A program made the position numbers and the translations under genes. Shown in pieces: positions 23,301 to 29,300 of a stretch of DNA of 64,000 nucleotides (positions are counted from its first letter, which is position 1; every line of letters starts with the position of its first letter). The notes under the pieces were generated by a model that worked only from the letters and a program-made list of their open reading frames with translations, was not told the DNA's origin and ran no database searches. Source of the DNA: Paragordius varius (taxonomy: Eukaryota > Animalia > Nematomorpha). The DNA is taken from positions 14,694,001 to 14,758,000 of the forward strand of contig OZ176050.1 in NCBI GenBank assembly GCA_964247055.1, given 5' to 3'.

Positions 23301-26300
23301 TTTACCATTAACAAACAATAATATGGCGACAGTCGAAAGAAGGAAAAAGCGTGGATATTTTTATTCCAACAAAATAGATTTTCTCTCAATGTCACATGGC
23401 TGGGAATTGTCGCAAATTAAAATAAATAAACTCGTTGGAAGCAAAGATCAGGTATTGAAACCTATTAATTAATTTATATTTTAATTTTTTTATTTCTTTT
23501 AAATTTTTGATATAAAACCAATATAATCCATAAATATGGGGTAGTTATTATTGTTGGGGCTTTTCTGAAAATTATAAAATTAACTTAATGAAATTAATAT
23601 ATGATATGGTATATACAGTGTTTAACTTTTTCAAAAATGGACGTTATATGACACTTTATCCATAAAATGTTTATATCTTGCTATATAGAGTAAAATTTGA
23701 TATTATACGGACAAAACGTAAAAATATAAAGACAAAAATTTTTTTTTAAAGACAACCATAGTTTTTTGAACCTTAATTTATCCTGTAAAAATCATTTAAT
23801 TAAATCGTAAAATACATAATTGATTGTGTTACCAATTTACATTCTATATTATACTTTGTAGTTTAAAACGAGTTATATTAAAAAAAATCAAGATTTAAAA
23901 AGTATGGGGTGTCATTTAGAAAAAAATTATTGTCTGTATATTTTTACGTTTTGTCCGTATAATTTCAATTTTTACTATATATTTTCATACATATTCTCCT
24001 TTGTAGAAATATCTATACGTTTTAACTGATACTGCCGTTTTGAAACTGAATCTTGCTAAATGCCATTTGTATTCGAACTCCAAAGCGTTGTGTTTAGGGT
24101 CGAATGACCCTCTTTGTGGTTGGGATAAACTCTTGAATGAATGTCGCCCTACACTAGCGACTTCTTTAAATGGTGACAAAAGCGGACATAATTTAGTCGG
24201 AGAATATCATTATTGGAAACCAGCGCCTGTTAGTTGTCCGACACAACAATTAAATTTACCCTTCTTAAAAAATACGGAAAAAACGTTTGAAAGCAACAAC
24301 CTTCCTAAACTGAATTGGAAAACTGCGTTGAATCAAATTAACCATGCTTTTTTGAATGGTAAAATATATGATTGATATTAATTTTTTAACATGGATAAAT
24401 GCTATTAAATTTGCCACTCAACCTTAATTCATTTTAAAAAAACGAAATATGATTTTAAATTTTATTACAAATGATAAAGAAATATCAAAGTTAGCAACAC
24501 TTTTTTGGGGACCTAAAATTTAAAAATATTGTTGCTTTTTATTCTAATCTATTATTCAACTTATATTGTTAGGAAGTTTTGTTTTATTCGTCTTTATTTG
24601 AAAGATAGAATAAACCATTTTAAACCTTATAAAACAATTTTTTTTCAAAGTTCAAACAAAATTTTAATACTTTAAAAATAGTACTCAGTGAGGGGTTGTC
24701 ACACCATTATAGTTTGTATTAAAAATGATAAAATTAGGCTCATATGAATCAAATGCCGAAAACGTAAATTGGTCCGAATGGAAAAAATGTCAATTGCTGA
24801 ATCCAACAACAGCTTGCCTTTGTCGCAAATCTGTCTGTCCTTACTTAACTTCGCCTTTCGAAGAAGAACAAATAAACTGCCAAAATTTTGAACCTGAAAT
24901 ACAAGTCACCAATTGTACAAGTATATAAAAAAATGCGTAAATAACCCCAAAAATGTTATAAATATATATAAATACAGTAAAAATTAGGGTTATAAGACAA
25001 AAAATTAAAAGGAAGAATAAACATCAGAAACCATATTTTTAAAATTCTAAATTTGTGAAAGGGTGTTTCATATAATTTATTATACACCTGTGCTCACTCC
25101 TTTTTATACACCGAAAACTATAGGTGATTTAAAGGTATATAAAATATGGGTTTTTTTATCGATTTTTATAATTTTATTTTTAGCCATATATTAGTTTACA
25201 ACAGAAGTGCTCAGCACAAATGACTTGTTTGCAAGCAATTTTTTTGGAAATTATGGAGTTTCATATTTTTTAAACAATTTTTCAAATATGTCACTGGCCG
25301 TTACATTAATTTGGCGATATTTAAATTGTAAGGAAATTAATCAAACATAACTTACTAACTGACAAGAAAGAAATTAAAAAATCAACATTTTTCATAAGTT
25401 ATAAGAGAATTGTTAGTTGTATGGGTGATCTTAACATAATAATCAACAATATGATCTTTCTTTCTTAATTCTTTGGTGTTAATTACTTTATTCACCCTGA
25501 TTACCATTATTAAAGCAACTTTGTTAATTCTCATTCTATCATCTGCAAACATTTCTTTCTGATATGCGCTCTCTTTACCCTTAATTAGAACATTAGCCAA
25601 TCTTGCTAATGTGTAAATGATGAATTTTCGGTTGCTACGATTGATGCTATCTATATTAAAAATCTTGTCCTTGTAAAACAAACTGAGAATAGGTTTAAAA
25701 AAAAGGCAAAAGCTTTGGTTGGTTTGTTTCCTCTCATACTGGTCAGGTCGATAGGATAAATAATTGCAAATTGGAAATTATCAAGTATATCACTGAGTAA
25801 CTGACCCCCGGAAAAGGCATTAAATCTCCAGATGGTACCTTATTCTCTAATATGCAACAATGTCCAAAGCAATCAGAAAATTATGTAGTAATTACAATCC
25901 ATTATCATAAGCAAAAAAGTGAATTATCAAAGCAACTTGCAAAATCCTAATCCTATTCACCGTGCCAGCATGAGAGGAAACAAACCAACTAAGATCTCAC
26001 TCGGCCTCTTTAACAAGAAAAGTGTTTTAGTTTTTTACAAGATTAAGCATGACCTTTAGTATATTTATATTATCAGTTTTGCGGCAACTGAAATTTCTTC
26101 TTTCACATTAGCCAATTAGCTAATGTTCTCAGTGCATTTCATGTCATAGTTTTTGACTATTTTAGTCTTCCAGGAGGGGTGGCTCTGTTTCTAGCAACAT
26201 GTGATGTGTCATACTAGGCGCCAGAACACCTGTTTATAGTTCCATGAAGGAACTTTTCAAACACGCATAAAACGAGCACTGTTAGATTGAAAGAAATGTA

Positions 26301-29300
26301 TCAGCATGATAGGTGGGTAATCAAAGTTTGCTCTGATAATGGCAAACAAAGAGGATAAAGTGATCAATAGCAATAAGAAAAAAAAGATTATGTTATTGAT
26401 TATTATGCTCTAATATCAACAACTATTCCCTTATTCTTTATGACAAAATTAATGGATCGCTGAAATTATTCACTATATAGAATAGATTTTCTAATTTTTT
26501 GTTACATATAGTTGCAAGTAGAGAGAAGCATAATCTAGAATAAGTTGGACAGCTTAATTGGTGGAACTAGCTCTTCTTGGATAGATCAAAATCTTGCTAA
26601 TTTTGATGAAGAACCCAAGATATATCATAGCACATTTAGACTGTTTGAGAAGTGGTATAACAAAAGCTTTCGAGGCTCTGATTGAGAGGTGTGATAAGGC
26701 GGCAACATGTGCAGAACCAAGCTAAATTTGAATTTCAATATCATATTTTAATGATATAACAAAGTGAAAATTACCAGTTTCATAAGATTACGTTTAATGA
26801 GTTATCAAGATTGGTGTGTTTAGCCTGAGGATTTAAAATAATCTCTAGCATATCTGATTTAGTAAAGAAATGGAATGAATATCTGCTAATGAGTTGATGC
26901 AAGAGATTAAATTTGCAATGTCCCATGTGAATTTTATCAAGTTTATTGATATGAAGAGTCTAGATAATAAAAAGTTTTGGAGGGAAGTTTTTTTATAAAC
27001 ACTATTAATTATAAAATACTAAGATACAAAACATTTAAAATATATATGAAAATTTGTTGAAATCAAAATTGCTGACACCCGACATGCTGATACATCTTTC
27101 ATTCCCATCAGCCGCACAAAATATCTCAAAGTGGCGTAGGCAGCTCGTGGGCTACGTGGTGGACACCCTTCTTGTTTTATAAAACTATATAACAGAATTT
27201 AACTATTTTGTCCTTACATTTTTTTTATTTCGCCTAGTTAATGGAGGCTGGTCCAAATGGACAGTTTGGAGTGAATGCCAAAGTTCCACAGTAAAGAAAT
27301 GTGACCCAAAATCCTCAAGAATTCGGACCAGAACATGTAATAATCCGACTCCAGCTTTTGGTGGCCGAAATTGTCAGGGAAGAAAGCGAGAAATTCAATT
27401 ATGCGATTGTACGGTAGAAAAAGGTTTAAAATAATTTTTAAAAGAGCTAATTTATTATGAAATAGGTTAGGCATATAGATGTACCTAATCTGAAAAAAAT
27501 GTAAAAATGGTTTTAAAATCGCGATTAAAGGTATAAATAATAAACTTTTAGAGCAGGGATGCCCAGCATAAATGGTTTATCGGGCCGCATTTTCGACTTT
27601 AGCTGGCCAGCTGCATATGAATTATAGTTATGAATAAATATTCCATTAGATTTTGAATAAGACTGTAAAAATATTACTCAATTATATCATTTTCAATAAT
27701 ATGGCAAAACTTGGAAAAATTTATTGAGAAAGTTTTTTTTAAAAATATCAATTTTACTAAGATTCTGCTGGCATCTTTTTGCAAATCATATGAGTCATAT
27801 TTATTTGGTCACAAACAACTATCTAAAGTATGGGAAACCACATAAAAGCCGCCATTTAATTATTTTATACATTATTCGTGGGTGGTATATTAAAATATTT
27901 CAAACATGTTGATTAGATAATTTTAGTAAGCAGTTATAATAGGTTTTCGCCTATAAATACCAATACTTTCCTAAAAGAGGCTATAAATATTTTTAGTTAT
28001 AAAAGATATGTATTTAATTATTATGTGCGTGCAAGGACAAAAGAGTTAAAATTGAAAAAGTTTATATTTAAATTTTATGCTTGATTTTTTTTCATTTGTT
28101 TGCAGTGGACAGTGGAACCGAGTTAATGCATTGGTCGCAATGGACAAACTGGGGGCCCTCTTGTCATTCCAATCAATCGAAACAATTTATAAATAATGAA
28201 ACTGCGACAACAGAAATATCATTTCAAACCCGTTCTCGCCAATGTTTAAATCGAAATGATAAAGATTTGAAACATTATTGTGTTGGTTCACCGCTTGATA
28301 TACGATTTTGTGATACAACTAATGGACGTGATATGTTGACTACAAGTATATATATACACCAATTTAATTAATATGATAAGATTTAATTGTTTTGTGCAAA
28401 TGCGATTTAAAAGGGATTTTTTTTAAAGTTAACTAATATATCACATTTAATTAAGATTTTTATTTGAGATTTTAAGGGTGAATCTTAATTTAATATATAG
28501 CGTGTTTTCAACGTACAGGAAAAAATTTAATTATAAACAGATGAAATACCAAGCTACAAATATTTTTTGAAAGACTACCATAATTTAACCTTGATTATTC
28601 CTATAAAAATATATTTTCACAATTTAAAATTAATAGCCAACACGATAGGTTAAAATAAATCAAGGTTAAAAAGATGTGCTTGTTAATTAAAAATATTTAT
28701 TTAGTTTTTGCGTTTTGTCTTTTCAATCCCAATTTTTCTAACCATTGCGTATAAAAATTATGGGGAAAATATGGTTTTATAAAATATTGCAGCTCTATAC
28801 ATGTTAAAAAACTTAAATTATATATTACTGTACAATATTATAAGAAAGTAAGAAAAGAGTAAGTATTATAAATTTTATTTTTATTTTAGCTGGAAAAGTG
28901 TGGAGTCCATGGGTGGAAAGAAATGCAGTAAATTTGGCCGAACTCACTTTGAAGTTGCAGGACTTTCATCGAAATAACCCTGAAATCGATGTCGCTGATC
29001 TGTTCATAAAAGCTAAAACAACCTCCAATTATAACCATTTAGTTGATTACATTTATGGGACGAAATATGAGGCTTTTTGTGAACTAAATTTGCCAAAACA
29101 AAATCTTTTATATGAAAACTCTACTAATATGGCCCTAAAAGTTACACCAAAACTCTATTTGAGAAAATACGCTTGTCAGAATCTAGCAAAAACAGTTAAT
29201 GTGGACTGGAATGCAGAAACATCCATGGGTGATTGTTTTCAGATAAACGGTATTACCTAAATTACTTTGACGAAGTTAAACCCTAAATTTGATTGCTTAA

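Follow-up and report, generated by a model that had tools for sequence, protein, structure and literature searches.

The inverted element and its host intron

The 64,000-nt stretch of the nematomorph Paragordius varius analysed here (hereafter the window; GenBank assembly GCA_964247055.1, contig OZ176050.1, positions 14,694,001 to 14,758,000, forward strand) holds a plus-strand semaphorin-5-like gene, with upstream Pfam matches to PSI (E 2e-6) and, weakly, to Sema, one of whose introns contains two diverged and oppositely oriented copies of a sequence that resembles in its motifs the nucleocapsid (N) gene of bunyavirus-type RNA viruses. This inverted element, its origin and its possible role are the subject of the present analysis. 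The host intron occupies 24921-27237 on the plus strand (2317 nt, GT...AG) and is flanked by a semaphorin exon at 24738-24920 (+; 8% variable among the paralogues described below) and by another at 27238-27424 (+; end approximate), presumably of thrombospondin type to judge from a WxxW/C pattern; the two exons share one open frame, which bears out the proposal, made in an initial annotation of this DNA, that both copies lie inside an intron of a plus-strand gene.

When the intron is compared with itself by BLAST, two inverted matches stand far ahead of all remaining ones within the window (every other E at least 1e-5): in one, 25587-26129 aligns with the reverse complement of itself (E 1e-24; 62% in a gapped alignment), and in the other 26289-26447 aligns with 25559-25388 (71%, E 7e-17). 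They define copy A, on the minus strand, with a distal arm at 25385-25561 (11 of 160 columns variable among paralogues) and a proximal arm at 25587-25770, and copy B, on the plus strand, with a proximal arm at 25936-26130 and a distal arm at 26289-26450, each arm pairing with its namesake. Arm identity over 311 gap-free columns is 67-70%, in keeping with the two-thirds to three-quarters originally estimated, and the inverted layout with its two arm pairs is likewise as first described; the best ungapped block (25715-25757 with 25950-25992) spans 43 nt at 84%. Between the proximal arms lies a slow-changing centre or terminal loop (25771-25935), and between the arms of copy B a middle segment (26131-26288, +; 25/146 columns variable), an internal loop unpartnered in copy A, from which about 135 nt of it are absent. 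An unpaired, slightly GC-richer tail (26451-26950, +), seen only in the three paralogues, varies at 79 of 381 columns, that is, at the intron rate. The arms end 460 and 790 nt away from the splice sites. Exact head-to-head abutment of the copies at about 25855, as initially proposed, holds up less well than the inverted layout itself: clear arm homology stops at about 25770/25936, the centre shows only weak self-similarity as far as 25855 (p 0.05 for the copy in the window, 0.21 and 0.70 for the two paralogues), and the junction is placed within about 25855-25935.

Copy number, age and decay

The same arm pair occurs at two further sites on contig C1, at 81-83% identity, and the three copies are not transposed copies: they belong to a whole block comprising a rhomboid and the semaphorin gene, triplicated with colinear exons and introns. 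Outside these paralogues neither arms nor tail were found in the genome by DNA and protein searches, the lone extra match, on contig C4, being at chance level (E 0.47), and the lack of copies beyond the three paralogues weakens an origin from a transposon family. The colinear intron and exon flanks mark a host-flanked and inherited integration, as is expected of an endogenous viral element (EVE). Since arm A and arm B diverge by about 31% and the same arm by 7-10% between paralogues, the hairpin predates the triplication of the block.

Decay is evident in both copies. Copy A retains a stop-free stretch of 76 codons (25385-25612, -), N-like by motif only and frameshifted in both other paralogues, and its frame breaks near 25613 in three of three copies; a 76-residue piece was modelled as a single long helix (pTM 0.34). 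Several breaks are shared in copy B, whose distal arm is repeatedly interrupted, and each copy carries additional private breaks that are later than the shared ones. Moreover, 33 paired nt have been lost from one arm in two paralogues.

An assembly artefact can be ruled out: the copies differ by 10-17%, their flanks are colinear, and the depth of contigs specific to the window is roughly half that of shared contigs (~220 as against ~450), a ratio consistent with real copies. Contigs from a DNA-like sequencing run cover 30 of 30 bins of the region, and two DNA-like runs cover the element. Five further runs, possibly of RNA, matched neither the element nor the host exons and are uninformative. 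Exact pieces of the locus (window 22000-28500) also occur, at a depth of about 5, in a run under a different organism label, which may reflect a parasite or contaminant inside another sample. The block itself occupies 7100-31200 of the window, with the other copies at about 14.80-14.82 Mb (+) and 15.09-15.11 Mb (-) of C1, all within 400 kb; block copies are 83-92% identical, the rhomboid gene is intronless with an open frame of 886 aa, and the long exons are open in all three.

Possible affinity of the arms to viral N

The initial annotation labelled both copies viral N, and this label survives in part: the order and spacing of the motifs fit, but objective searches came back blank or non-significant. 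RGNKP and TLxRxA, which resemble phlebovirus N motifs, are the starting point, the RGNKP codons falling in the proximal arms (25720-25734 in copy A, 25973-25987 in copy B). The RGNKP, TLA(R/K)LANV and KVIN pieces are colinear on the N profile, in family order and at roughly family spacing, and TLARLANV of copy A has its counterpart in TLARVANV of a uukuvirus-like N. In a post hoc comparison, six of seven hand-picked pieces scored best at the colinear N position, the seventh being tied under a broader profile; the TL-motif piece reached 15-18 bits, a score that 0 of 600 random pieces attained, the RGNKP piece was equalled by 0-2 of 600, the KVIN piece by 3 of 600 under one profile while being misplaced under the other, and the C-terminal pieces gave p 0.05-0.17. 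HHalign placed three fragments, in order, at N positions 58-73 (P 2e-4), 165-212 (P 0.06) and 216-225 (P 0.13), and found no placement on N for the middle piece of copy B. In one set-up a frameshift-tolerant score lay narrowly above those of all 138 control tiles, the RGNKP motif being its sole basis. The differences between A and B bear a mild coding signature, confined to the N-sense strand (p 0.015-0.13 across three measures in three pairs; antisense 0.24-0.76), and the copy-B paralogues show none among themselves.

The reference N sets comprised 23 distinct sequences from viral contigs (three of three checked being Tenui_N) and 59 drawn from the protein database. On Tenui_N, real N proteins reach 266-280 bits, and because the frames of the element are broken the profile tests have lower power. 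Pfam gave no useful match on six frames and fragments, a Staphylokinase match (18 bits) being dismissed as below the 25-bit cut-off. PDB searches returned no match to the arms, nor did a search of 5.8 billion proteins or the ESM Atlas, and the sole match among 1.84 billion representative proteins was a repeat-protein artefact; Rfam had no match over 19000-32000, and no relatives were found among viral contigs and metagenome contigs. Genome profile searches run without a positive control left Tenui_N, Bunya_RdRp and uukuvirus N unmatched, and a Phlebovirus_G2 profile likewise found no match in the genome. Taken together, we consider a bunyavirus-type N origin of the arms moderately probable, and grant a non-viral origin, counted over all functional readings, somewhat less than even odds.

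Predicted RNA fold

Folding of 25380-26460 (1081 nt) gave a minimum free energy of -314.4 kcal/mol, against -217.8 +/- 7.7 (lowest -232.9) for 40 dinucleotide shuffles (z -12.5); the duplex that the initial annotation proposed thus lies well above background, and the long intramolecular pairing characteristic of hairpin RNA (hpRNA) or endogenous small interfering RNA (siRNA) loci is found here as a prediction. The accompanying caution that arm divergence would restrict the quality of the duplex also proved apt. The 285 predicted long-range pairs are distributed over 50 helices, and the only one longer than 12 bp, a 24-bp helix with 2 G-U pairs (25714-25737, +, with 25970-25993), contains all four fully paired 21-nt starts, while 31 starts have at most two unpaired bases. 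The opposite, non-transcribed strand folds better in three of three copies, and G-U pairs (25 on the transcribed and 21 on the opposite strand) are not enriched.

Small-RNA machinery of the host

Insects possess two Dicers as well as PIWI proteins. The host set looks different, which makes doubtful the arthropod framing under which the initial annotation had the element feed PIWI-interacting RNAs (piRNAs). In the genome, 10 of 10 Piwi-domain matches fall within two genes (contig C2, 3.35 Mb; C1, 12.32 Mb), one conserved and one divergent, both a better match to AGO than to PIWI (the divergent gene scores 108 bits to AGO2 and 46 to the best PIWI). Exons of the divergent, second AGO show residues at the putative D-E-D-H positions, placed after human AGO2. 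RNase III matches correspond to one Dicer-like and one Drosha-like gene (4/6 candidates), and three of five PAZ candidates matched, representing the AGO and Dicer genes plus one AGO fragment, none of them PIWI. Arthropod-style piRNA feeding is thus not supported, as no PIWI-clade gene appeared among the Piwi-domain and PAZ matches of the genome; searches with Piwi_N, Maelstrom, A_deamin (ADAR) and RdRP, run without a positive control, also gave no match.

Animals lacking Piwi, a nematomorph among them, are documented in an earlier report (PMC4323106), and loss of the piRNA pathway is possible in the present host. Since an AGO/Dicer set was found without PIWI, a Dicer/AGO read-out is to be expected rather than 1U piRNAs; judged from gene content, the piRNA route looks unlikely and the Dicer/AGO route would remain. 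A separate observation concerns an intronless Argonaute fragment of 272 codons on C2 at about 12.606 Mb (local 8154-8972, -), which matches residues 165-420 or so of human AGO (E 1e-60) and directly adjoins an 817-codon frame with reverse transcriptase (RT), RNaseH and integrase, of long terminal repeat (LTR) type by its sequence motifs; the AGO piece was possibly captured by a retrotransposon.

Rate of change and competing interpretations

Geometry, intronic position, presence in three paralogues and decay of the reading frames are direct observations, and the reading that we favour, at a probability of roughly 0.55, is that of an old, decayed, inverted virus-like fossil, co-transcribed with its host gene, weakly folded and of little or no selected role, rather than the functioning antiviral memory that the initial annotation suggested as a possibility. 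Fragments of an N gene from a distant RNA virus of bunyavirus type would have been captured by reverse transcription, the inverted pair arising by fold-back duplication or by the joining of two related templates; the coding signature points somewhat towards two templates, and the centre, if near-palindromic, towards fold-back. Lodged in the semaphorin intron, the element would then have been copied with the whole rhomboid and semaphorin block. It would be transcribed along with the intron, the pre-mRNA folding into a mismatched hairpin, and spliced out and degraded, yielding few Dicer products, if any, these coming from the best block of 43 bp.

Several results weigh against this reading. As regards its viral component, Tenui_N (PF05733) has no match in six frames or fragments, single-frame hidden Markov model scores against real N proteins are not significant, and the other frameshift-tolerant or chained set-ups fall inside the null, with the element outside the first 14 among about 370 loci. 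As regards its inertness, the arms are variable among the three paralogues at 64 of 587 columns (10.9%), compared with 363/1764 (20.6%) in host introns and 113/644 (17.5%) where the element is unpaired (p 0.001), most exons being 6-12% variable. A neutral simulation with the substitution spectrum of the introns gave about 107 changes in the arms at the composition-corrected intron rate, where 60 are observed, and 0 of 1500 simulations had 60 or fewer; among semaphorin intron stretches of the same size, even the slowest (14%) changes faster than the arms. With a rate about half that of the gene's introns, the arms may be under some constraint, and such slowness is not what pure neutrality predicts.

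Other observations bear on how these rates are to be read. Block-wide, 26% of equal-sized non-coding windows (about 12 of them independent) are as slow as the arms, slow non-coding DNA being found also beside the rhomboid gene; the paralogue tree differs from one part of the block to another, a pattern to be expected of gene conversion, and misalignment may inflate rates in the A+T-rich introns. A seemingly stronger conservation of paired columns (7.9% vs 16.5%, p 0.004) was discarded, as a neutral tree with an internal branch reproduces it (P 0.16-0.6), and once polarity is modelled the slowing affects unpaired columns as much as paired ones. Changes on both sides are seen in just 3 of 316 consensus pairs, with an unfavourable covariation term (+9.7), three sequences affording low power; the compensatory change that would preserve pairing in an hpRNA is, at that power, not seen. 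Cognate arm pairs are neither more identical nor more stable than non-cognate ones. The slow rate of the arms is accompanied neither by pairing-specific constraint nor by strand preference. Elsewhere in the intron, near its 3' end, a gap-free stretch of 42% GC (27075-27215), common to the three paralogues and without Rfam match, may represent a cryptic exon or a cis-acting element.

Three alternatives, each of which we regard as unlikely, compete with the decayed fossil. The element might be a kept hpRNA-like locus, whose siRNAs, made by Dicer, would be loaded on the second, divergent AGO to silence some target, a related virus or another, in place of a piRNA memory that seems to be missing from this host. 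Among the three paralogues the arms change more slowly than introns, tail or loop, which would suit it, as would the slowing of paired and unpaired columns together, which selection for target matching should produce; so would the predicted duplex with its z of -12.5, the presence of Dicer, Drosha and two AGO-clade genes, the second with presumed D-E-D-H residues, and the tomato precedent considered below (PMC9868043). Yet few 21-mers are well paired, neither covariation nor strand preference is seen, the 33 nt gone from one arm in two paralogues were paired ones, other non-coding DNA of the block is equally slow, and a fossil of such age should seldom match a living virus closely. Similarly improbable is a service to the host transcript, in which the duplex folds away about 1.1 kb from an intron of 2.3 kb and tunes splicing or pre-mRNA stability, or the sequence acts as a cis-regulatory element: this would accommodate a slow block that is nearly contiguous and takes in the unpaired centre (9/117 columns variable), in a gene whose long open exons are kept in all three copies, but not the lack of compensatory change and of any advantage of the transcribed strand, nor the distance of the arms from the splice sites.

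No better placed is the idea that the arms are both non-viral and inert, a fragment of a decayed host gene or of an extinct transposon duplicated in inverted orientation, with N-like motifs arisen by chance. The blank Pfam, PDB and protein-database searches and the failure to find Tenui_N in the genome agree with it, as does the inability of profiles of 23-59 real N proteins to rank the element above control DNA; the post hoc colinearity of the three motifs and the HHalign order of the three fragments argue the other way, as does the want of further genome copies, which a transposon would usually leave. As for a head-to-head pair of N fragments, lodged in the semaphorin intron of an animal that seems to be without PIWI proteins and kept by sequence constraint in all three paralogues, so that a promoter-less hairpin supplies Dicer and the divergent AGO in the manner of the tomato hairpins, we deem it slightly more doubtful still.

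Comparison with known systems

Non-retroviral EVEs of mosquitoes and ticks feed piRNAs. The present element is like them in consisting of decayed RNA-virus gene fragments, if viral, fixed in the germ line, and unlike them in residing at a single intronic locus rather than a piRNA cluster, in a genome where no PIWI-clade gene was found. Pieces that resemble RGNKP, TL-x-(R/K)-(L/V)-A and (K/R)VIN of Phenuiviridae N (PF05733, Tenui_N) stand in family order, but the element has no significant profile score, its linkers differ from those of phlebovirus N, and both copies are broken.

A report on tomato describes intronic inverted-repeat loci of endogenous pararetroviruses, transcribed from host promoters and with siRNAs measured (PMC9868043). 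As portrayed there, these TSAs resemble the element in being virus-derived inverted repeats in introns, some with diverged arms; they differ in deriving from a plant DNA pararetrovirus, whereas here the host is an animal and the source at best a distant negative-strand RNA virus. The Drosophila hpRNAs Nmy/Tmy are likewise long inverted repeats made from gene fragments and possible Dicer/AGO substrates, but with highly complementary arms and known host targets, as against arms of 67-70% and one Dicer found in the present case (PMC10292708). By analogy, tomato would provide a direct precedent for the proposed mechanism and the Drosophila hpRNAs a looser one; it is at most hpRNA-like, and the element is only a candidate member of the hpRNA and phenuivirus-N EVE classes. 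In a partial literature search, mostly at listing level, no intron-borne inverted RNA-virus N hairpin was found in an animal.

If inert, the element would be a relatively datable fossil, older than the rhomboid and semaphorin triplication, and possibly a record of bunyavirus-type infection in a lineage where no other such trace was found here; if it produces siRNAs, it would offer an animal without piRNAs a route to a heritable record of RNA viruses. In either case the three paralogues constitute a built-in comparison of arms with loop and tail.

Other features of the window

Mobile sequences are scattered through the window. A very high-copy short repeat with inverted ends, resembling a miniature inverted-repeat transposable element, lies at 23685-23990 and also at 20600-20850 and 21025-21140, with a summed contig depth of about 1e6 compared with about 1e3 in its surroundings. 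Two overlapping frames at 55580-57839 (-) match RT (RVT_1, E 8e-6) and resemble a Penelope-like retroelement, with a putative GIY-YIG-like C-terminal motif. Three related frames of 138-142 codons, at 4139-4567, 37417-37839 and 39816-40232, give a weak helix-turn-helix match and are probably pieces of a DNA transposon. Lastly, a tandem duplication with a period of about 3.45 kb extends over about 46400-53500, with identical BLAST matches at 46448/49900 and 48221/51704.

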